UHGV virus genome: UHGV-0101498
Source: a virus
Length of the DNA: 33,788 nt
Direction: 5' to 3' (one strand)
This document shows positions 691 through 33,429 of the stretch, piece after piece. The notes under the pieces are model-generated. The model was not told the origin of the DNA and did no database searches. It worked only from the letters and a program-made list of their open reading frames with translations. Made by a program: the position numbers and the translations under genes. Numbering within the stretch: position 1 is the first letter of the stretch; each line of letters opens with the position of its first letter.

Positions 691-1743
691 TTACGGGGTA
701 ATGCCAACCGCTGCCGCCACTTTGTCGCCACTTGGCAGCGTTGCCAGAGGATTGAAACGGAGCGCCGTTTCCAGATGATCCGGTGCCAGATGTGCGTAAC
801 GCATAGTCATTTTTATATCGTGGTGTCCGAGAATTTTTTGTAAGGCCAGAATGTTTCCACCCGACATCATGAAGTGCGCCGCAAACGTATGGCGCAGAAC
901 GTGTGTGAGTTGACCGCGAGGGAGCACGATAGACGTTTTTTCCATCACGGATAAAAATTGAAAATAGCAGTCTGTGAAGAAATTGAACCCATCAAGCGCC
1001 ATGATCTCTTCGTAAAGCTCTTTACTGATAGGGATGCTTCTGTTTTTCTTCCCCTTCGTTCTGACAAAGGTAATTCGGTATTTGGTCACCTGTGAGCGGG
1101 TAAGATTTACGGCTTCACGCCAGCGTGCGCCTGTGCTTAAGCATATCTTAACTACCAGTGCCAGAATTGGGTCCTGACGTTTGCAATCAGCCAGCAATTC
1201 AACAATCTGCTCATGGGTAAGCCATGCCATCTCTTTTTCTGCGATGGTGAATTTTCGCATGTTCTCCAGTGGGTTCGGATACGACCATTCGCCCAGACGG
1301 GATAGTTCGCTAAAAACACTACTTAGATAGCTTTGCTCCAGGTTAATGGTGACCGGGCTTGCTCCTTTCTTCCATTTCTCGCTGAAGTAGATCTCGCCTG
1401 TCAGGCGTTTATCTCGATAGTGGGCAAACATTTTAGAGGTGAGATCGGTTGCAAGAGGATTGCCCAGAGCGTCAACCATCAACAGCAATTTGTCATAGAC
1501 ATGCTGCCCAGCTGTCAGAGATTTACCATGTAGTTTGAACCATAGCTCAACCACGTCTTTCAGTGTTCGACGATCCACTGATTCACCCAGCCAGGGCTTT
1601 GCTTCGGTTTCTTCCATCGTGTGGCGCTCAAAAGCCAGTGCTTCGCCTTTGGTGACGAATTGTTTACGCACACGACGCCCACTTCGTCCGGCGGGGTAAC
1701 ATTCGCAAAGCCATTTCCCAGTGGTGAGTTTTCGTACTGCCAT
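691..1743 (-). CDS. int: Tyrosine integrase, P2 Int-like (351 aa)
   Basis: ORF 691..1899; internal ATG at 1743 preceded by GGAGGG; C-terminus carries the tyrosine-recombinase motifs (HVLRHTFAAH...LGHHDIKMTMRYAHL). Confidence 0.85.
   Translation of the reverse strand: MAVRKLTTGKWLCECYPAGRSGRRVRKQFVTKGEALAFERHTMEETEAKPWLGESVDRRTLKDVVELWFKLHGKSLTAGQHVYDKLLLMVDALGNPLATDLTSKMFAHYRDKRLTGEIYFSEKWKKGASPVTINLEQSYLSSVFSELSRLGEWSYPNPLENMRKFTIAEKEMAWLTHEQIVELLADCKRQDPILALVVKICLSTGARWREAVNLTRSQVTKYRITFVRTKGKKNRSIPISKELYEEIMALDGFNFFTDCYFQFLSVMEKTSIVLPRGQLTHVLRHTFAAHFMMSGGNILALQKILGHHDIKMTMRYAHLAPDHLETALRFNPLATLPSGDKVAAAVGITP
708..730. repeat. Putative attL core (overlaps the 3' end of int)
   Basis: 22/23 identity with 33738-33760 in otherwise unrelated sequence context. 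Confidence 0.5.
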
Positions 1744-1931
1744 AAAAAATGCCCTCCAGTAGAGAGCATTTTCACTGTATGTATAACCAGTGTCAATGTA
1801 TGAAATCCTACGACCATACATCTCACTGAAGCCATAATTAAGTTGGCTATTCTTTTTGCTATGTGAGCATGTAACTTTTGCGGTTAACCTGCGGCTCATT
1901 TTTATTTTAGACGCAGATATAAAAGCAAAAG

Positions 1932-8996: not shown

Positions 8997-9078
8997 CGCG
9001 CGCTTGCTCTTGAAATGAGAAAGTTAATTGGTTAACTTTTTAAGCAGGGTCAACGCACTGTTGAGCAAAGGAGTGAGT

Positions 9079-9726
9079 ATGATTAGTACAGGACATATTG
9101 TCGCTGTTGGCGCGGTTGATGCAGGCGAAGTAAAATTACTGGGTACCGGTTTTGTCATCTCTAATGACAAGATAATTACATCTCGGCATGTAATTCGTGG
9201 TTTTGCTTTTAATATAATAATTTCTCCTTCGGAGATTAATGATTTTAATCTTTATCAAGATACTACAATCAACAGAATTCAGTATTATTCTGTTGAGGTA
9301 ATTGATGAGGATCCAATCAGAGATCTTTGTGTTTTGAAATTTAAGGCAGGATCGTTTTCTGGGCCCAATATTATCCTCTCAAGCTTAGATAAAATATCTA
9401 TTGGTGAAGAAGTTGGTGTTTTGGGTTACCCTCATTGTAATGAGGGTAGAAAAGTACTTACATTCCAAACAGCAAGAGTCGGTGCTAAGGTTTTACTTTC
9501 GAGTAATAATGTAAAGTCTAAACATGCAGTTATAAATTTGCAATCAAGACCAGGTCAATCAGGTTCAGTTATTTTTAATTTAAAAAATAATGAGGTTGTC
9601 GGGGTGTTAGTTGGTGCTTATACAAATAATGCAGCGGGCTCTGTATTTATTGGAGGAATTAATCCTGCAGCTTTGCATCAAACTACTTATGCGATTTCAG
9701 CTGAATATATTAAGGATATGTTATGA
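9079..9726 (+). CDS. Trypsin-like (S1 family) serine protease, 215 aa, cytoplasmic (no signal peptide apparent)
   Basis: Catalytic triad candidates His37 (TSRHV), Asp82 (RDLCVLKF), Ser161 (GQSGS); AGGAG RBS 5 nt before ATG; AT-rich. The ORF track starts at TTG 9028. Confidence 0.75.
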   Translation: MISTGHIVAVGAVDAGEVKLLGTGFVISNDKIITSRHVIRGFAFNIIISPSEINDFNLYQDTTINRIQYYSVEVIDEDPIRDLCVLKFKAGSFSGPNIILSSLDKISIGEEVGVLGYPHCNEGRKVLTFQTARVGAKVLLSSNNVKSKHAVINLQSRPGQSGSVIFNLKNNEVVGVLVGAYTNNAAGSVFIGGINPAALHQTTYAISAEYIKDML

Positions 9727-10169
9727 TCTCTATACCAAATGAAGATGCTGAAGCTTGGCTATCTACCTTAAAAAAATATCAATCATCAACTATTAAATCC
9801 TTTCTCGAGCAAGGTACGGAAGAGCAAGCTCTTGAATCATGGTTAACAGCTTCAGGCCCAAGTTTAACATCTCCATTTGGAGGGGATGCTTCCAGCATGC
9901 CGGGTAAAAAGGCATTTGTTGATCAGTTTAAGCAAGAGTTTAGAGCTTTTGTTTGTGGAAGCGATAAATATGTCAAAGAGAGGAATGGATTGGGTGAGCT
10001 TGGCGGGGATATTAAAACCTATCTTGTCAGTGTTATTTCAAGTTCAATTGCTACCTCTTTAGGTACTACTACAGTATTTATTGCTCCCGCTGTTGTAATC
10101 ATGCTTATTACGATCTCAAAAATGGGTCTTAATGCGTGGTGTTCATTAGAAACCGTAAAAGACTCTTAA
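9723..10169 (+). CDS. Small protein (148 aa) with a soluble N-terminal region and a C-terminal hydrophobic membrane segment; partner of the protease
   Basis: Start overlaps the protease stop (ATGA); C-terminal stretch YLVSVISSSIATSLGTTTVFIAPAVVIMLITISKMGL is predicted transmembrane. Confidence 0.65.
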   Translation: MISIPNEDAEAWLSTLKKYQSSTIKSFLEQGTEEQALESWLTASGPSLTSPFGGDASSMPGKKAFVDQFKQEFRAFVCGSDKYVKERNGLGELGGDIKTYLVSVISSSIATSLGTTTVFIAPAVVIMLITISKMGLNAWCSLETVKDS

Positions 10170-23497: not shown

Positions 23498-23522
23498 AAA
23501 CGCCCCTTATGGGGCGTATTTT
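23498..23522. terminator. Bidirectional rho-independent terminator between G and the convergent acyltransferase gene
   Basis: AAACGCCCC-ttat-GGGGCGT followed by ATTTTG. Confidence 0.65.
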
Positions 23523-24676
23523 GCTGCTTGCACGTTATTCTTTGGAAGAATTTTATTTGATAAATAATTGGAAAATTTTATCGCGTTATCATCAATTAGC
23601 AATTTAAAAATTAAAGCTGCAAGTATTGAAGATAATAAAGTGATTGGGAAAGTAATAAGTAAAGACTTTCCGTATGAAACTCCTGCATCACCAAGCTTAA
23701 TTACGATCAAAGAAGATATTGAAGCTATTAATGGAAAATGCACCAGATAAAGAGAGTATGATACATCTCCAAGAAATTTACAGGTTTTTGTTTTGAATAA
23801 ATTTGAGATAACTATTGATTTATCAATTGCTATAATAAGAAACATTGAACCAAAGGCTTGAGAAACAATTCTCAAATCAAAGTAAGTTATGTCACTGTTA
23901 TTTATCCAGATACTATGTTCAGTTATAAAATATGGGTATGAACCTAGGTAACATCCTAGTAAAATAAACATAAAGATAATTGTGGTATTAATTTTCTTTA
24001 TATTAACTGAAACATCTGCACAAATCACCCCTAATATAAATCCTAATAGATGACTTGAGCTAAATACCACAATACCCAAAGTATAAAAAGCAAACCTAAT
24101 TCTGGTAGTGCAAACTAGTGGGACCAGAACGAGTACAAGAATTGAGCCAACCAATTCGGTGTGAATGGTCCATAATACTGGGTTTAATGTTTGAACTCCG
24201 TAAAAATATGTACCAATACCCCCTTCCCATACCGCATTCAGTAATGTCATTGTAGTTGGCATCGCTGGGATTACTTGTGATAAAGAGTACACTGCAGTTT
24301 CTGATGAATGAAATCCAATCGTTGTCATCAGAATAAAGGAAAATATAGTAGATGCAATGGTAGGTATTGCAAGACGTGGGTATCTCTTGATAATGGATTT
24401 AGAGTACCATTCTAGCCCCTTCCCTTTGAAAAAGGGAATCGATAGAACCATTCCACTCAAAACGAAGAAAAGCATTACGGCAAAGTGACCATTATATAAT
24501 ATATTAAATGGAGTTTCACTTATGTATTTCTCTCCATAATGATCTATCTGATTTTGAACAAAAACAGATGGTAGAAAGAATTGCATGAAATGGCTTATTA
24601 AAACTATCAAGCAAGCTATACCACGAATACCATCCAGTGCGTGATCTCGGGAAGGCGTCGTTAATTGTTGAACCAT
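23507..24676 (-). CDS. Integral-membrane acyltransferase (acyltransferase-3/OafA-like); candidate O-antigen or surface-polysaccharide acetyltransferase
   Basis: About 390 aa with about 10 predicted transmembrane helices; N-terminal LDGIRGIA...LISHF motif; AT-rich. Alternative start at 24691. Confidence 0.75.
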   Translation of the reverse strand: MVQQLTTPSRDHALDGIRGIACLIVLISHFMQFFLPSVFVQNQIDHYGEKYISETPFNILYNGHFAVMLFFVLSGMVLSIPFFKGKGLEWYSKSIIKRYPRLAIPTIASTIFSFILMTTIGFHSSETAVYSLSQVIPAMPTTMTLLNAVWEGGIGTYFYGVQTLNPVLWTIHTELVGSILVLVLVPLVCTTRIRFAFYTLGIVVFSSSHLLGFILGVICADVSVNIKKINTTIIFMFILLGCYLGSYPYFITEHSIWINNSDITYFDLRIVSQAFGSMFLIIAIDKSIVISNLFKTKTCKFLGDVSYSLYLVHFPLIASISSLIVIKLGDAGVSYGKSLLITFPITLLSSILAALIFKLLIDDNAIKFSNYLSNKILPKNNVQAAKYAP

Positions 24677-24918
24677 CAATTCCTCACACATTGTAATAAA
24701 GTATTAAAATAAAATAGTAAAAGCAGAATATACAAATACGAAAAGCGGAATTATACTTTACAAGAGTGCTTGATGCTATTGTTTTGTCGAGATTTATAAT
24801 CTGATCTTCTGTAGATGTTGTCCTGGCATTGTCCAATCATGATCTATGGGCTGGCTGGCGAACTTTCGATAGTGCGAGTATTGAATGATTTCCAGCCGTT
24901 ACCGATTTTACGTGTTAA

Positions 24919-25167
24919 TTAGTGAACAAACCACTCGTCAGCAGATTCCCAGGTATCTTTCAGAGTCTCCTGAACAAAAGTTTTTGCAGAATCCTTATCT
25001 GCGGTGCGTGTAACAGAAAGGCCATCGTTGCTGGTGGCTTTTACGATCACCTCTACATCGTCATAACGTTTACTGATGCGTCGGGTTAATTCTTCCTTTA
25101 ACGCATCCACAGCACCGGTTGGCATTTTAGTCATTTTTTCTTTGGCTATGCAGATTTCAATACGCAT
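24919..25167 (-). CDS. DinI-family protein (82 aa)
   Basis: [31 protein letters not shown]...[11 protein letters not shown], strongly DinI-like; GAGGGA RBS. Confidence 0.8.
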
Positions 25168-25180
25168 AAAAGTCCCTCTA

Positions 25181-25200
25181 TACTGTGTTTGTATACAGTA
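25181..25200. promoter_or_regulatory. LexA box TACTGTGTTTGTATACAGTA (near-perfect palindrome) upstream of the DinI-like gene
   Basis: CTGT-N8-ACAG seen directly, 14 bp upstream of the start codon. Confidence 0.75.
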
Positions 25201-25208
25201 TTATTTTT

Positions 25209-25228
25209 AACTGTATGGATAAACAGTG
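25209..25228. promoter_or_regulatory. Second LexA box aACTGTatggataaACAGtg
   Basis: CTGT-N8-ACAG, 8 bp from the first box; abuts the stop of the tyrosine recombinase gene. Confidence 0.6.
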
Positions 25229-25855
25229 TCAAGAGGTCTTATTTCTGCTCCTTTGGAGCTCTTCAAAACGATTATGTAAAGATTTCGGATACAGTTCGGT
25301 ATATACCTGCCATAGCACGTTTAATGAACGATGCCCTGTAACCTGGGCGACTTCCTCAATACTAAAACCAGCCTCAAATAAGCGACTTGCCCCTTCTCTA
25401 CGCAAATCATGGTATCGCAGATCTTTAATACCTAATTTGCTTCTTACCCTCTGGAATCCCGCAGTAACAGAAGTGCTGTTATATGGAAAAATGAATTCTG
25501 ATTTTTTGGGTTGTCGTTGGACGATATCCCAGGCTTCCCCAAGCAAGGCTACTTTCATATGGTTGCCTTCCTTTTTACGTGGATCTTTCCTGTCTCTTAC
25601 GAGTATGGATTTTTGTTCCTGATCGAGATCCTCCCATCGTAATCGGCATACTTCACCGATTCGCATACATGACCACACAGAAAATTTGAGGATATCAACG
25701 AACGGAATTTTTGAGCATTTATGTGTAGATCGTTGTTGAAGACCTTCAATGAGCATGTCCAGTTCATCAGATGCCGGTCTACGATTACGACGATTTGATT
25801 TACCAATTAAACCAACGTTTAAGAAAATGCAGAGGTAACAGCTAACTGGCATCAT
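25229..25855 (-). CDS. Short tyrosine recombinase (catalytic domain only, about 208 aa): FimB/FimE-like switch recombinase or 5'-truncated integrase
   Basis: R (RIGEVCRLR), HxxR (YHDLRREG) and H...Y (GHRSLNVLWQVYTELY) motifs present; no N-terminal core-binding domain; no good RBS. Confidence 0.55.
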   Translation of the reverse strand: MMPVSCYLCIFLNVGLIGKSNRRNRRPASDELDMLIEGLQQRSTHKCSKIPFVDILKFSVWSCMRIGEVCRLRWEDLDQEQKSILVRDRKDPRKKEGNHMKVALLGEAWDIVQRQPKKSEFIFPYNSTSVTAGFQRVRSKLGIKDLRYHDLRREGASRLFEAGFSIEEVAQVTGHRSLNVLWQVYTELYPKSLHNRFEELQRSRNKTS

Positions 25856-25882
25856 CTCCGGTTTTTATTCAGGGGGATGATC

Positions 25883-26449
25883 ATGCTTATTGGCTATGTA
25901 CGCGTGTCAACAAATGACCAGAACACCGATTTGCAACGTAATGCACTGAACTGCGCGGGATGTGAGCGGATTTTTGAGGACAAAATCAGTGGCACTAAGT
26001 CCGACAGACCGGGGCTGAAAAAACTACTCAGGACACTATCGGCAGGAGACACGCTGGTTGTCTGGAAGCTGGACATGTTGGGGCGCAGTATGCGGCATCT
26101 TGTTACGCTGATAGAAGAGTTGCGCCAGCGTGGTGTGAATTTCAGAAGCCTGACTGACAGTATTGATACCAGTACCCCAATGGGCCGTTTCTTTTTTCAT
26201 GTCATGGGTGCCCTGGCTGAAATGGAACGCGAACTGATAGTTGAACGTACCAGGGCAGGGCTGGCTGCAGCTCGTGCCAAAGGCAGAGTAGGTGGACGCC
26301 GTCCTAAGTTGACCACCGAACAGTGGGCACAGATTGGGCGTTTACTCGAGGCCGGAGAATCAATACAGCGTATTGCACTGATTTTTGATGTAGGCGTTTC
26401 TACCATTTATAGAAAATTTCCGGCAAATAAGATCAATGAATCCCCCTGA
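25883..26449 (+). CDS. Serine recombinase, DNA invertase of the Hin/Gin/Pin family (188 aa)
   Basis: MLIGYVRVSTNDQNTDLQRNAL...SLTDSIDTSTPMGRFFFHVMGALAEMERELIVERT with a C-terminal HTH, nearly co-linear with Hin/Gin as recalled; GGGGG RBS 6 nt before the ATG. Confidence 0.85.
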   Translation: MLIGYVRVSTNDQNTDLQRNALNCAGCERIFEDKISGTKSDRPGLKKLLRTLSAGDTLVVWKLDMLGRSMRHLVTLIEELRQRGVNFRSLTDSIDTSTPMGRFFFHVMGALAEMERELIVERTRAGLAAARAKGRVGGRRPKLTTEQWAQIGRLLEAGESIQRIALIFDVGVSTIYRKFPANKINESP

Positions 26450-26497
26450 ATCAGCATTATGTTGATTATCCCTGCAAGCAGACAAATACCGTTATTT

Positions 26498-26591: not shown

Positions 26592-27764
26592 ATGGCTCAG
26601 GATTACCACCACGGGGTGCGCGTTGTTGAAGTCAACGAAGGCACCCGATCTATTACCACGGTGAGCACCGCCATCGTGGGTATGGTCTGCACGGGCGATG
26701 ATGCCGATGCAAAAATGTTTCCTCTTAATAAACCCGTGCTGATCACTGATGTGCTGACTGCCAGCGGTAAAGCGGGTGAGTCAGGTACTCTGGCCCGTTC
26801 GCTGGATGCCATCGCTGACCAGGCAAAACCCGTGACCATTGTTGTGCGTGTGCCGCAGGGTGAAACGGAAGACGAAACCACGACCAATATCATCGGCGCA
26901 GTGACTGCTGAAGGTAAAAAAACAGGTATGAAAGCCCTGTTATCTGCCCAGTCACAGCTCGGCGTTAAACCGCGCATTCTCGGCGTGCCAGGCCACGACA
27001 CCAAGGCGGTAGCTACTGAGTTGCTGAGCGTGGCGCAAAGCCTGCGTGGATTTGCTTACCTGTCAGCGTATGGCTGCAAGACAGTGCAGGAGGCGATCAC
27101 TTACCGCGAAAACTTCAGCCAGCGCGAAGGGATGCTGATCTGGCCTGACTTTACTGGCTGGGACACGGTGCTGAATGCCGAAGCAACGGCATATGCCACC
27201 GCCCGTGCGCTTGGTCTGCGCGCCAAAATTGACGAGCAGACCGGATGGCACAAAAGCCTGTCCAACGTGGGCGTGAACGGTGTCACCGGAATTTCTGCAG
27301 ATGTGTTCTGGGATCTGCAGGACCCGGCAACCGATGCAGGTCTGCTGAACCAGAACGACGTCACCACGCTTGTGCGTAAAGACGGTTTCCGCTTCTGGGG
27401 TTCCCGCTGCCTGAGTGATGACCCGCTCTTTGCCTTCGAAAACTACACCCGCACGGCGCAGGTGCTGATGGACACGATGGCAGAAGCACACATGTGGGCG
27501 GTGGATAAACCGCTTAACCCGTCGCTGGCCCGCGACATTATCGAAGGTATCCGCGCCAAAATGCGCAGCTTGGTCAGTCAGGGCTATCTCATTGGTGGTG
27601 ATTGCTGGCTGGATGAGTCGGTGAACGACAAAGACACACTGAAAGCCGGAAAACTCACCATCGACTACGACTACACGCCAGTGCCGCCACTTGAAAACCT
27701 GATGCTGCGTCAGCGCATCACCGATCAGTACCTGGTGAATTTCGCCAGCCAGGTCAGCGCGTAA
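26592..27764 (+). CDS. FI: Contractile tail sheath protein (P2 gpFI-like)
   Basis: 390 aa; position and P2 FI-like pattern. Confidence 0.9.
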
Positions 27765-27773
27765 GGGGACAAC

Positions 27774-28289
27774 ATGGCTTTACCACGCAAATTAAAACAC
27801 CTGAACCTGTTTAACGACGGGAACAACTGGCAGGGGATCGTTGAGTCGCTGACGCTGCCGAAATTTACCCGCAAATATGAGAAGTATCGCGGCGGCGGAA
27901 TGCCGGGTGCGGTGGATGTGGATCTGGGGCTTGATGACAGTGCGCTGGACACAGAATTTTCCATTGGTGGTACTGAATTGCTGCTGTTTAAACAGATGGG
28001 TAAAGCCACGGTGGATGGCATCCAGCTGCGCTTTACCGGCTCTATTCAGCGTGACGATACCGGGGAAGTGCAGGCCGTGGAGCTTGTCGTGCGTGGACGT
28101 CACAAAGAAGTGGATTCCGGCGAGTGGAAGACGGGCGAAAGCAACACCACCAAAGTGACCAGTACCAACAGCTACGCGAAGCTGACCATCAATGGTGAGG
28201 TGCTCTATGAAGTGGACCTTATCAACATGGTGGAAATTGTGGACGGTGTGGACCTGATGGAAGCGCACCGCAACGCCCTCGGCCTCTGA
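27774..28289 (+). CDS. FII: Tail tube protein (P2 gpFII-like)
   Basis: 171 aa, immediately after the sheath gene. Confidence 0.85.
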   Translation: MALPRKLKHLNLFNDGNNWQGIVESLTLPKFTRKYEKYRGGGMPGAVDVDLGLDDSALDTEFSIGGTELLLFKQMGKATVDGIQLRFTGSIQRDDTGEVQAVELVVRGRHKEVDSGEWKTGESNTTKVTSTNSYAKLTINGEVLYEVDLINMVEIVDGVDLMEAHRNALGL

Positions 28290-28343
28290 TATATCTGAAC
28301 GGCGCGGGATACCGCGCCAGAACCCAATTGACAGGACAGCAAA

Positions 28344-28646
28344 ATGAGCGATAAGCAGACTGAAAAGACCATTCAACTGGATACCCCCATCAAGCGCGGT
28401 AAAACAGAAATCACCGAAATTGTGCTGCGTAAACCGCAGTCCGGTGCGCTGCGCGGTACACGCCTGCAGGCCATTATGGATATGGATGTAAACGCGATGA
28501 TGACCGTGATCCCCCGCATCTCCAGTCCGGCACTGACTGCACAGGAAATTGCAGAGATGGACCCGGCAGATCTCACTGCCATGTCGGTTGAGGTTGTCAC
28601 TTTTTTGTTGAAGAAGTCGGTGCTTGCCGGTTTACCGACAGCCTGA
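28344..28646 (+). CDS. E: Tail assembly chaperone E (P2 gpE-like)
   Basis: 100 aa; followed by a slippery site and a -1 frame extension. Confidence 0.8.
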   Translation: MSDKQTEKTIQLDTPIKRGKTEITEIVLRKPQSGALRGTRLQAIMDMDVNAMMTVIPRISSPALTAQEIAEMDPADLTAMSVEVVTFLLKKSVLAGLPTA

Positions 28647-28780
28647 CGGTTGACGATCTGGTGGCAGATATCGCCACCATTTTTCACTGGCCGCCATCCG
28701 TTACTGACGTTATGCCGCTGACCGAAGTGCTGGAATGGCGGTATAAAGCGATTCAGAGAAGCGGGGCCAACGATGAGTGA
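28344..28780 (+). CDS. E': E+E' frameshift-extended tail chaperone (-1 PRF product)
   Basis: Hand-translated -1 frame after 28607 (VEEVGACRFTDSL...WRYKAIQRSGANDE*); conserved E/E' architecture of P2-like phages. Confidence 0.6.
28601..28607 (+). promoter_or_regulatory. Programmed -1 ribosomal frameshift slippery heptamer TTTTTTG
   Basis: T6G near the 3' end of E; the -1 frame stays open for 57 codons to a TGA at 28778-28780 that overlaps the T start. Confidence 0.65.
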
Positions 28781-31700
28781 TAACAACCTGCGTCTGCAGG
28801 TCATTCTTAATGCGGTTGACAAGCTCACCCGCCCATTTCGATCTGCGCAGGCCAGTTCAAGAGAACTGGCTGCTGCTGTCAAAAAATCCCGCGATGCAAT
28901 AAAGCAGCTTGATCAGGCCGGGAGCAGTCTGGACAGCTTCCGAAAGCTGCAGGCAGAAAATCAGAAATTAGGCGACAGGCTGAACTATGCCCGCCAGCGT
29001 GCAAATTTGCTCAGTCAGGAACTGGGAGCGATGGGGCCGCCTTCGCAACGTCAGGTTGTTGCTCTGGGCCGTCAACGGCTGGCTGTTCAGCGCCTGGAAG
29101 AACGCCAGAAAAAGCTGCAGCAGCAGACGGCGCTTGTGCGTGCTGAACTGTACCGGGCGGGAATTTCTGCGAAAGACGATGCGGGAGCAACTGCCCGTTT
29201 AGCCCGTGAAACATCACGTTATAACCAGGAGCTTTCGAAACAGGAGGCGCGGCTGAAGCGACTGGGTGAAGCTCAGCGCAGGATGAATGCGGCGCGTGCC
29301 AGTTATGCCCGTTCGCTGGAGGTGCGTGATCGTATTGCAGGTGCCGGAGCCACCACCACGGCTGCAGGGCTGGCAATGGGTGCGCCAGTGATGGCGGCAG
29401 TAAAAAGCTATACCAGCATGGAAGATGCCATGAAAGGTGTGGCAAAGCAGGTCAATGGTCTGCGTGACGATAATGGCAACCGCACTGCACGTTTTTATGA
29501 AATGCAGGATGCCATCAAGGCTGCCAGCGAACAGTTGCCGATGGAAAACGGTGCGGTGGACTTCGCTGCACTGGTTGAAGGTGGTGCGCGCATGAACGTC
29601 GCAAACCCTGACGACAGCTGGGAAGATCAGAAACGTGACCTGCTGGCCTTCGCCAGTACGGCAGCAAAGGCGGCAACAGCCTTTGAGCTGCCAGCGGATG
29701 AACTGTCAGAAAGTCTGGGGAAAATCGCCCAGCTCTACAAAATCCCCACCCGCAATATTGAACAGCTCGGTGATGCGCTGAACTATCTGGATGATAACGC
29801 CATGTCGAAAGGGGCAGACATCATTGATGTGATGCAACGTCTGGGCGGTGTGGCTGACCGTCTGGATTATCGTAAAGCGGCGGCGCTGGGTTCCACCTTC
29901 CTGACACTGGGCGCTGCGCCAGAGGTTGCAGCCAGTGCAGCAAACGCGATGGTGCGTGAATTGTCCATTGCCACCATGCAAAGCAAGAGTTTCTTTGAAG
30001 GGATGAATCTGCTGAAACTCAATCCTGAAGTGATTGAAAAGCAGATGACGAAGGATGCGATGGGAACCATCCAGCGCGTGCTGGAGAAGGTAAACGCGCT
30101 GCCGCAGGACAAGCGCCTGTCTGCCATGACTATGTTGTTTGGTAAAGAGTTTGGCGATGACGCGGCGAAACTGGCAAACAACCTGCCGGAACTGCAGCGT
30201 CAGTTAAAACTGACAGCGGGCAATGATGCGCTCGGCTCCATGCAGAAAGAATCCGACATTAACAAGGATTCACTTTCTGCGCAGTGGTTGCTGGTCAAAA
30301 CCGGAGCGCAGAACACCTTCAGCAGCCTGGGCGAAACGCTGCGCCAGCCGCTGATGGATATTCTGTACACGGTGAAAAGCGTCACGGGGGCGTTGCGTCG
30401 CTGGGTGGAAGCTAACCCGGAACTGACAGGCACACTGATGAAAGCATCGGCTGTTGTGGCTGCTGTTACCGTCGGCCTCGGCACCTTAGCGGTGGCGCTG
30501 GCTGCAGTGCTGGGGCCGCTGGCAGTGATCCGTCTGGGATTCTCTGTGTTGGGTATCAAAACGTTATCTTCCGTTACGGCAGCAGTAACCCGAACCAGCA
30601 GCGCGTTGTCCTGGCTGGCTGGCGCACCACTGGCACTGCTGCGACGCGGGCTTGCTTCATCGGGCAACGCCGCAGGTTTACTTACTGCGCCGTTGTCGTC
30701 TTTGCGCCGCACGGCATCACTGACGGGAAATGTCCTGAAAACTGTAGCAGGTGCGCCGGTTGCACTTTTGCGGTCTGGATTATCCGGTTTACGTGCTGTT
30801 GCTGTGATGTTTATGAATCCTCTGGCGGTACTGCGCGGTGGACTGGCCGCCGCAGGCATGGTGCTGCGAGTACTGGCATCTGGTCCACTGGCGATGCTGC
30901 GCGTTGCCCTGTATGCCATATCTGGTCTGTTAGGTGCTCTGCTCAGTCCGATAGGTCTTGTGGTTACTGCACTGGCGGGCGTGGCGCTGGTTGTCTGGAA
31001 ATACTGGCAACCCATCACCGCATTTCTCGGTGGCGTGGTGGAAGGATTCAAAGCGGCGGCAGGTCCCATCAGTGCAGCGTTCGAACCGCTTAAGCCCGTG
31101 TTCCAGTGGATTGGCGACAAAGTGCAGGCGCTGTGGGGCTGGTTTACTGATCTGCTGACGCCCGTTAAGTCGACCTCTGCCGAACTGCAGAGCGCAGCGG
31201 CAATGGGGCGGCGATTCGGGGAGGCACTGGCGGAAGGGCTGAATATGGTCATGCATCCGCTGGACTCCCTGAAATCCGGCGTTTCCTGGTTGCTGGAGAA
31301 GCTCGGCATTGTCAGTAAAGAGGCCGCAAAGGCAAAACTGCCGGAAAGCGTGACGCGTCAGCAACCTGCGACGGTGAATGCAGACGGTAAAGTGATGATG
31401 CCATCGGGTGGTTTTCCATCATGGGGATATGGCTTTGCGGGGATGTATGACAGCGGCGGGTATATCCCGCGCGGGCAGTTTGGCATCGTCGGTGAAAACG
31501 GGCCGGAAATTGTTAACGGCCCGGCAAATGTGACCAGCCGGAGAAATACAGCTGCACTGGCTGCCGTTGTTGCCGGAATGATGGGCGTTGCTGCCGCGCC
31601 AGCAGAGCTTCCACCGTTGCACCCTTTGGCACTTCCCGCGAAAGGTGGAGAAGCAATTGTGAGTCGCGCAGCCACTGTGCCGCTCGTTCAACGGATTGAG

Positions 31701-31850
31701 GCACCGACGCAGATCATCATTCAGACGCAGCCAGGACAAAGTGCGCAGGATATTGCGCGGGAGGTGGCACGCCAGCTTGATGAACGTGAACGCAGGCTGA
31801 AGGCAAAAGCCAGGAGTAACTACAGCGATCAGGGGGGATACGACGCATGA
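28773..31850 (+). CDS. T: Tail tape-measure protein (P2 gpT-like), 1025 aa
   Basis: Very long coiled-coil/Ala-rich ORF after E/E'. Confidence 0.9.
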   Translation: MSDNNLRLQVILNAVDKLTRPFRSAQASSRELAAAVKKSRDAIKQLDQAGSSLDSFRKLQAENQKLGDRLNYARQRANLLSQELGAMGPPSQRQVVALGRQRLAVQRLEERQKKLQQQTALVRAELYRAGISAKDDAGATARLARETSRYNQELSKQEARLKRLGEAQRRMNAARASYARSLEVRDRIAGAGATTTAAGLAMGAPVMAAVKSYTSMEDAMKGVAKQVNGLRDDNGNRTARFYEMQDAIKAASEQLPMENGAVDFAALVEGGARMNVANPDDSWEDQKRDLLAFASTAAKAATAFELPADELSESLGKIAQLYKIPTRNIEQLGDALNYLDDNAMSKGADIIDVMQRLGGVADRLDYRKAAALGSTFLTLGAAPEVAASAANAMVRELSIATMQSKSFFEGMNLLKLNPEVIEKQMTKDAMGTIQRVLEKVNALPQDKRLSAMTMLFGKEFGDDAAKLANNLPELQRQLKLTAGNDALGSMQKESDINKDSLSAQWLLVKTGAQNTFSSLGETLRQPLMDILYTVKSVTGALRRWVEANPELTGTLMKASAVVAAVTVGLGTLAVALAAVLGPLAVIRLGFSVLGIKTLSSVTAAVTRTSSALSWLAGAPLALLRRGLASSGNAAGLLTAPLSSLRRTASLTGNVLKTVAGAPVALLRSGLSGLRAVAVMFMNPLAVLRGGLAAAGMVLRVLASGPLAMLRVALYAISGLLGALLSPIGLVVTALAGVALVVWKYWQPITAFLGGVVEGFKAAAGPISAAFEPLKPVFQWIGDKVQALWGWFTDLLTPVKSTSAELQSAAAMGRRFGEALAEGLNMVMHPLDSLKSGVSWLLEKLGIVSKEAAKAKLPESVTRQQPATVNADGKVMMPSGGFPSWGYGFAGMYDSGGYIPRGQFGIVGENGPEIVNGPANVTSRRNTAALAAVVAGMMGVAAAPAELPPLHPLALPAKGGEAIVSRAATVPLVQRIEAPTQIIIQTQPGQSAQDIAREVARQLDERERRLKAKARSNYSDQGGYDA

Positions 31851-32332
31851 TGATGGTGCTGGGATTGTACGTGTTTATGCTGCGCACCGTTCCGTATCAG
31901 GAACTGCAGTATCAACGCAGCTGGCGACATGCGGCAAACAGTCGGGTAAACCGACGTCCGTCCACGCAGTTTCTGGGACCGGAAAACGACATGCTGACGC
32001 TTTCCGGTGTTCTTATGCCGGAAATAACAGGCGGCAGGCTGTCGTTGCTGGCACTGGAGCAGATGGCAGAACAGGGGAAAGCATGGCCCCTGATTGAAGG
32101 CAGCGGCACGATTTACGGCATGTATGTGATTGAGGGACTGAATCAGACTAAAACGGAGTTTTTCCGCGATGGTATGCCGCGCCGGATTGAGTTCACCCTG
32201 TCGCTCAAACGGGTGGATGAATCCCTGTCCGATATGTTCGGTGATCTCAGTGCGCAGCTGAATAATTTGCAGGATACGACAACGTCTGCCTTAAGCGATA
32301 TCAGTAAAACGGTGGGAGGGCTGCTGTCGTGA
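31847..32332 (+). CDS. U: Tail protein (P2 gpU-like)
   Basis: 161 aa; overlaps the T stop. Confidence 0.8.
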   Translation: MMMVLGLYVFMLRTVPYQELQYQRSWRHAANSRVNRRPSTQFLGPENDMLTLSGVLMPEITGGRLSLLALEQMAEQGKAWPLIEGSGTIYGMYVIEGLNQTKTEFFRDGMPRRIEFTLSLKRVDESLSDMFGDLSAQLNNLQDTTTSALSDISKTVGGLLS

Positions 32333-33429
32333 ATTTCAGTTCTGAACTGCTTAACAAAGGCAACAAAACTCCGGCATTCAGCATCAGTATTGAGGGTAAG
32401 GATATCACCACTGTGCTGGATAACCGCCTGATGAGTCTGACGCTGACGGACAATCGGGGCTTTGAAGCGGACCAGCTTGATCTGGAGCTGGACGACGCCG
32501 ACGGAAAAATCGTGCTGCCGCGCCGTGGTGCGGTCATTACGCTGGCGTTGGGCTGGAAGGGGCAGTCGCTTTTCCCGAAAGGAGCATTCACGGTGGACGA
32601 GATTGAACACACTGGCGCACCGGACCGCCTGACTATCCGGGCGCGAAGTGCTGATTTTCGTGAAACCCTGAATACCCGCCGTGAAAAATCGTGGCACAAG
32701 ACCACCGTTGGGGAAGTGGTGAAGGAAATAGCTGCGCGGCACAAACTGAAGATGGCATTGGGTGAAGACCTGTCGGATAAACCTGTGGAGCATATAGACC
32801 AGACCAATGAGAGTGACGGCAGTTTTCTGATGCGGCTGGCGCGCCAGTACGGTGCTATTGCGTCGGTGAAAAATGGCAATCTGTTATTCATCCGGCAGGG
32901 ACAGGGCAAAAGCGCCACTGGTAAACCACTGCCGGTGATCACTATCACACGCAAGGACGGCGACAGTCACCGCTTTACCCTGGCAGATCGCGGAGCCTAC
33001 ACGGGGGTAATTGCCAGCTGGTTGCATACCCGCGAACCCGCGAAGAAAGAAAGCACTACGGTGAAGCGTAAGCGCAGGACTAAGAAGCAGAAGAAAGAGC
33101 CGGAAGCGAAGCAGGGCGATTACCTGGTGGGGACGGATGAAAACGTGCTGGTACTTAATCGCACTTATGCCAACCGGAGCAACGCCGAACGAGCGGCAAA
33201 AATGCAGTGGGAACGCCTGCAACGCGGCGTTGCGTCATTCTCGCTACAACTGGCGGAAGGGCGGGCAGATCTCTACACGGAAATGCCTGTGAAGGTCAGT
33301 GGTTTTAAACAGCCGATAGATGATTCGGAATGGACCATTACGACTCTGACACATACCGTCAGCCCGGATAACGGTTTTACGACCAGTCTGGAGCTTGAAG
33401 TGAAGATTGATGATTTCGAAATGGAATGA
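32329..33429 (+). CDS. D: Tail protein (P2 gpD-like, late control D family)
   Basis: 366 aa; overlaps the U stop. Confidence 0.85.
   Translation: MNFSSELLNKGNKTPAFSISIEGKDITTVLDNRLMSLTLTDNRGFEADQLDLELDDADGKIVLPRRGAVITLALGWKGQSLFPKGAFTVDEIEHTGAPDRLTIRARSADFRETLNTRREKSWHKTTVGEVVKEIAARHKLKMALGEDLSDKPVEHIDQTNESDGSFLMRLARQYGAIASVKNGNLLFIRQGQGKSATGKPLPVITITRKDGDSHRFTLADRGAYTGVIASWLHTREPAKKESTTVKRKRRTKKQKKEPEAKQGDYLVGTDENVLVLNRTYANRSNAERAAKMQWERLQRGVASFSLQLAEGRADLYTEMPVKVSGFKQPIDDSEWTITTLTHTVSPDNGFTTSLELEVKIDDFEME

Follow-up and report, generated by a model that had tools for sequence, protein, structure and literature searches.

The locus at 28344-28780 of the window (the whole 33,788-nt stretch of viral DNA that was analysed) very probably specifies a programmed -1 ribosomal frameshift of the type found in phage P2, in which a tail assembly chaperone, E, and a frameshifted fusion, E+E', are made from the same start. 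The heptamer and its phase, the two open frames, their family membership, the conservation of the site and the shift in coding constraint from one frame to the other at the heptamer were all read directly from the DNA and its relatives. According to this interpretation ribosomes would start at ATG 28344 and most of them would stop at 28644-28646, giving the 100-aa chaperone E. A minority would slip back one base with tRNA-Phe and tRNA-Leu on the TTT TTG of the heptamer at 28601-28607 and would then read 57 codons of the -1 frame to the TGA at 28778-28780, giving a 145-aa E+E' protein. The predicted fusion junction is ...VVTFL|VEEVG..., and tandem slippage on the ribosome predicts a junction peptide ...EVVTFLVEEVGACR. 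This is a textbook case from a known family and entirely ordinary. It indicates that the tail chaperone module of this P2-like prophage has been kept in a functional-looking state, with little import beyond annotation quality.

Reading frames, family matches and the tail operon

Gene E, the zero-frame chaperone gene on the plus strand, was identified from its open reading frame, a Pfam match and its wobble pattern, and extends from ATG 28344 to TGA 28644-28646 (100 aa; read directly and checked by script). The slippery heptamer T TTT TTG (28601..28607, plus strand), which was assigned from its phase as determined by script, from the P2 site and from conservation, lies in the X XXY YYZ phase of E, with its first T at 28601 being the third base of an E codon (zero frame AC T TTT TTG), and E reads on for 12 codons past it. 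The -1 frame is open from 28592 to 28777 (62 codons), and TTTTTTG at 28601-28607 is the sole X XXY YYZ heptamer in the stretch that is open in both frames. Counted from 28607, the -1 frame contains exactly 57 sense codons (VEEVGACRFTDSLTVDDLVADIATIFHWPPSVTDVMPLTEVLEWRYKAIQRSGANDE) followed by TGA 28778-28780. This extension, E' (28607..28780, plus strand), is supported by the open frame, a Pfam match and its own wobble pattern, and its stop is overlapped by 8 nt by the tape measure gene T, which starts at ATG 28773 (ATGAGTGA). Joining residues 1-88 of E to E' gives the predicted 145-aa fusion. Between 28608 and 28646 (plus strand) the DNA is dual-coding, with the C-terminal tail of E in frame 0 and the beginning of E' in frame -1, and variability is damped there. 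The initial annotation had reported a TTTTTTG heptamer near the end of E, a 57-codon open -1 frame behind it and a TGA overlapping the start of the tape measure gene, and all its coordinates and counts were right; the phase and position of the heptamer were verified by script.

Both parts of the predicted fusion matched the protein families expected for a P2-type pair. E matched Pfam Phage_TAC_7 (PF10109, gpE family) with E = 1e-18 and 67.5 bits against a cutoff of 25, over 78 of the 79 model positions, and the -1 frame matched Phage_P2_GpE (PF06528, E' family) with E = 5e-19 and 67.9 bits against a cutoff of 23, over the full 37-position model. No NCBIfam model matched E or E+E', and a PDB sequence search with the fusion profile gave no significant structure. 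The gene order is FI-FII-E/E'-T-U-D, with the E/E' pair between the tail tube gene FII (27774..28289, plus strand; Pfam Phage_tube, 8.8e-60), which is directly upstream of E, and the tape measure gene T (28773..31850, plus strand; a 1025-aa ORF matching Pfam PhageMin_Tail, 2e-18). The sheath gene FI (26592-27764) and genes U (31847-32332) and D (32329-33429) gave full-length family matches. The frameshift site had also been proposed as a check that the late region is intact, and FI, FII, E, T, U and D do all have full-length family matches, but one site cannot vouch for the whole late region.

Conservation, selection and alternative explanations

Relatives were sought with the fusion alignment in a viral contig collection, and the lineage of the window was represented by 73 distinct sequences that aligned without gaps and were 69-100% identical. 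The T6 run was invariant in 73/73 of these, with G or A as the seventh base, a synonymous Leu change in the E frame, and in all 73 E is 100 aa long and E' stays open for 57-58 codons. The heptamer was in phase in 68/69 distinct sequences of the P2 lineage and in 47/47 GC-rich sequences of the Ralstonia type. In the lone exception among the P2-lineage sequences (L095, IMGVR_UViG_2531839586_000013) scattered single-base deletions in E break the frame relationship, and this sequence is either an assembly error or a decaying prophage.

Selection was measured as the mean column entropy at E-frame codon positions 1/2/3 in the 73 distinct sequences. Upstream of the heptamer the values were 0.28/0.15/0.88 bits, with the peak at the E-frame wobble position; in the overlap they were 0.27/0.31/0.38 bits, damped at all three positions as expected for dual coding; and past the E stop they were 0.12/0.62/0.24 bits, with the peak at E-frame position 2, which is the wobble position of the -1 frame. 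Given that the wobble peak moves from the E frame to the -1 frame, this indicated that the coding constraint changes frame at the heptamer. The slip site is in addition kept beyond the needs of the encoded protein, with only 8 of the 86 degenerate wobble positions in E being invariant and the two within the heptamer (28601 and 28604) among them.

The length of the -1 frame is by itself weak evidence for a frameshift and proves nothing alone, because a -1 frame of at least 57 codons is open by chance at 11.2% of the in-gene codon positions of this operon. TTTTTTN is likewise common, with 49 copies on both strands of the whole window, and these two figures favour an explanation in which a chance open frame lies behind a chance T-run and the second product is not made. 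That explanation is effectively refuted by the Pfam match of the -1 frame, by the purifying selection acting on it and by conservation over about 190 distinct sequences from three lineages. None of the other in-phase TTTTTTN sites in the window pairs the 3' end of a gene with a -1 frame reaching the next gene. What lifts the feature above chance is the combination of phase, position at the 3' end of a real gene, the PF06528 match and comparative conservation.

A different question is whether E' could be a separate 39-aa gene that is translated independently from GTG 28661 and needs no frameshift. Public records point in this direction, in that the counterpart of 28661-28780 of the window is a CDS of its own in NC_049342, OV696611 and KT630647, and at the match a 'GpE family phage tail protein' has its own entry in RefSeq E. 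coli chromosomes; moreover, the PF06528 model starts exactly at the GTG 28661 codon, and Met occupies the equivalent residue in P2 and in several relatives. The predicted Shine-Dalgarno (SD) pairing before GTG 28661 is, however, -2.5 kcal/mol, equal to the background median, as compared with -4.0 to -11.0 kcal/mol for six real starts in the operon, and the codon is GTA in 5 relatives and Trp, Ala or Ile in distant ones. The -1-frame residues T102, V103, D/E104, D105 and L106, which are located upstream of GTG 28661, are preserved across synonymous codon changes, and wobble periodicity in the -1 frame can be seen from 28647 onwards. No ATG, GTG or TTG occurs in the -1 frame between 28592 and 28660, GTG 28661 being the first start codon, and the constraint upstream of it together with this lack of a start codon argues that translation enters the -1 frame from E. 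Nor would independent translation account for the fact that the heptamer is invariant. With background-level SD pairing, an unconserved codon and constraint upstream of it, internal initiation at GTG 28661 was rejected as a start for E', and a separate E' gene is extremely unlikely. The P2, PSP3 and KL3 records use a join for E+E', unlike NC_049342, OV696611 and KT630647. Thus, public records of a very common lineage, RefSeq E. coli included, split off E' where the evidence favours a 145-aa frameshift fusion.

The same fusion could also arise if RNA polymerase, rather than the ribosome, slipped in the T6 run and added one U, so that a fraction of the mRNAs would encode E+E' in a single frame. 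The slip site is a homopolymer run in which a one-base insertion gives the identical frame change, and selection on T6 fits slippage of the polymerase as well as slippage of the ribosome, sequence alone not separating the two. For polymerase slippage to be productive in bacteria, however, a run of about 8-9 residues or more is normally required, and T6 is short by that measure. Furthermore, the homologous heptamers GGGAAAG in a Mannheimia phage and CCCTTTC in Klebsiella phi5.4 are not homopolymers and support tandem slippage on the ribosome instead, and the X XXY YYZ phase, which only ribosomal slippage requires, is held in every lineage. Polymerase slippage as the main source of the fusion was therefore judged highly unlikely, and ribosomal frameshifting remains the preferred explanation. 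The initial annotation had called the signal conserved and taken it for the expected tail-chaperone frameshift; retention of T6 or of the in-phase heptamer in the sequences of the three lineages bears out the first point, and the second agrees with both family matches, the position between FII and T, the heptamer and phase shared with P2, the missing E' start and the frame-switching selection.

Comparison with other phages and search for stimulatory elements

P2 genes E and E+E' were reportedly studied by Christie et al. (2002, J Bacteriol 184:6522), and the lambda gpG/gpGT tail assembly chaperone frameshift is said to have been the subject of work by Levin et al. (1993) and by Xu, Hendrix & Duda (2004, 2013, 2014), the 2004 study reportedly describing a conserved tail-assembly-chaperone frameshift in long-tailed dsDNA phages. 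In the P2 record AF063097, E is 91 aa long, E+E' is entered as a joined CDS, and a 'site of -1 translational frameshift' is marked. The P2 site, GGT TTT TTG, has a heptamer and phase identical to the T TTT TTG of the window, and P2 also shares the 57 -1-frame codons of E', the 8-nt overlap between the E' stop and the start of T, and the gene order FII-E/E'-T. When the rule used for the fusion (zero frame through TTG, then -1) was applied to P2, it gave the published sizes of 91 aa for E and 142 aa for E+E', as given in PMC3091744 citing Christie 2002. PMC3091744 and PMC5009743, both citing Christie 2002, state that in P2 the two proteins are made from one start and that both are essential for tails. 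The similarity has limits, in that the fusion of the window is only 49% identical to that of P2, E is 100 aa as compared with 91 aa in P2, and 12 E codons follow the heptamer as compared with 6 in P2. The lineage of the window belongs to other Peduoviridae genera than P2, and its closest records are from Wadgaonvirus and Elveevirus.

The frameshift is reported to be conserved among tailed phages, with an efficiency in P2 that is 2-3 fold above that in lambda (PMC5009743). Lambda gpG/gpGT follows the same logic, with a common N-terminus, slippage into the -1 frame shortly before the first ORF ends, a position between the genes for the major tail protein and the tape measure, and a ratio of products fixed by the efficiency of slipping (PMC5009743). 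The lambda heptamer is G GGA AAG rather than T TTT TTG, sequence similarity to the window is undetectable, and the lambda tail is non-contractile, unlike that of the phage type in the window. From P2 and lambda we infer the slip on the ribosome, its efficiency and the chaperone roles (PMC5009743, PMC3091744). By analogy with gpG/gpGT, the common E part may bind the tape measure protein T and the E' part may recruit the tail tube protein FII, a fixed ratio set by the slip would be needed for correct tail assembly, and both E and E+E' would be absent from the virion.

The arrangement was also examined at 15 loci from 11 host genera, where every E'-like frame was -1 with respect to E and every overlap contained an X XXY YYZ heptamer in phase, TTTTTTG being the commonest. 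With the fusion as query, tblastn gave matches in 425 phage records; 388/425 covered at least 80% of the query, and among the 60 records listed the full-length matches were always split in two pieces. Homologous in-phase heptamers of other sequence were GGGAAAG in the Mannheimia phage (L008, position 994), the same as in lambda G/GT, TTTTTTC in Vibrio MAR (L009, position 934), TTTTTTT in a Zymomonas plasmid prophage (L011, position 952) and CCCTTTC in Klebsiella phi5.4 (L014, position 952).

No downstream stimulatory structure was detected in the 93 nt past the heptamer, which folded no better than shuffled sequences (z = -1.66). An alignment fold of 40 distinct downstream segments with a column-shuffle control gave z = -1.45, and folds of the downstream regions in 12 diverse phages gave z between -2.1 and +1.5, in both cases with nothing above background. 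This negative result fits published accounts in which P2-type sites lack a hairpin downstream (PMC3091744), a feature that the site in the window shares with P2. An SD-like GAGG is present at 28590-28593, 7 nt upstream of the heptamer, and its wobble G is invariant in the 73 relatives. As a required stimulator GAGG was rejected on the grounds that many GC-rich relatives carry GAA-GTG or GCG-GTG at this place, and as a stimulator of the dnaX type it was rejected since the 7-nt spacing is too short. Sites of the dnaX type are defined by a conserved hairpin or pseudoknot at a distance of 5-9 nt on the downstream side, or by an SD-like element some 10-14 nt ahead of the slip site, and neither was found at the E/E' site.

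Hairpins and prophage setting

A terminator-like hairpin is located inside E' at 28659-28679, starting 13 nt past the E stop and within the most conserved E' motif (VADIATIF). It has a stem of 7 bp (TGGTGGC/GCCACCA) with a folding energy of about -11 to -12 kcal/mol and is followed by T5 extending to 28684. Its distance from the heptamer is 51 nt, well past the 5-9 nt typical of 3' frameshift stimulators. Four wobble positions in the stem were less variable than other E' wobble positions (0.28 vs 0.65 bits, resampling P about 0.03), those in the loop vary freely, and at one stem pair a compensatory change has replaced G-C by A-T in five related sequences, which probably reflects a single event. 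When the motif was recoded synonymously only 4.9% of the recodings folded as well as the hairpin. Together, the stem constraint, the free loop, the compensatory change and the rarity of such recodings weakly support a role as a weak intrinsic terminator or mRNA-processing element, which would form only when ribosomes stop at the end of E and be melted by frameshifted ribosomes. Against this role, the T-tract behind the hairpin is not conserved, P2 and PSP3 have no equivalent E' hairpin, and the motif itself is prone to form palindromes, given that 30% of the recodings reach -8 kcal/mol, which suggests that the E' peptide motif predisposes to a palindrome. Analogous E' hairpins are present in SEN8, phiCTX, KL3 and ENT90. 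The evidence on this hairpin is suggestive only and such a role is very doubtful; if it were true, the hairpin would couple expression of T, U and D to the frameshift. A second, GC-rich hairpin (GGCGCGG-GATA-CCGCGCC) with no T-run behind it lies in the FII-E spacer at 28301-28318, where it may stabilise the mRNA or direct its processing between E and the tube gene, which is highly expressed.

The window was found to contain a P2-like prophage with an integrase, CI, a CII-like gene, a Dam-type methylase and gpA; its portal and terminase genes are on the minus strand. The head genes are O, N, M and L, the tail fibre genes are H and G, and the baseplate genes V and J were recognised by family matches. 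Positions 28290-28800 have 100% nucleotide identity to Escherichia phage 500465-1 (NC_049342; Peduoviridae, Wadgaonvirus), and this locus was present at a minimum of 80% identity in 998 of 5,426 complete E. coli genomes (about 18%). NC_049342 and about 1,000 E. coli prophages share the locus, yet they annotate E' as a separate 39-aa CDS. If such a prophage is to be engineered, induced or used for building tailocins, the heptamer and the frame relationship should stay intact.

The left end of the window, with a TetR-family regulator (20-586), appears to be host DNA; the prophage integrase (691-1899, minus strand) comes next, and no tRNA genes were found in the whole window. A two-gene cargo lies at 9028-10169, between the gpA/DinI-like region and the portal gene. 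Its products, a trypsin-like peptidase of 232 aa and a protein of 148 aa, match PDC-M35, a candidate defence system in PADLOC (A 1.5e-91, B 6.3e-57). An inserted block at 23507-26489 separates the sheath gene FI from gene G for tail-fibre assembly. It encodes an acyltransferase_3 and a short tyrosine recombinase of 207 aa, both on the minus strand, and a serine invertase of 190 aa. The block is bracketed by a 17-nt inverted repeat (23516-23532 / 26473-26489) whose 88% complementarity is near chance level. Phage 500465-1, whose E/E' sequence is identical, carries an invertase together with inverted tail-fibre genes at the place of this block.
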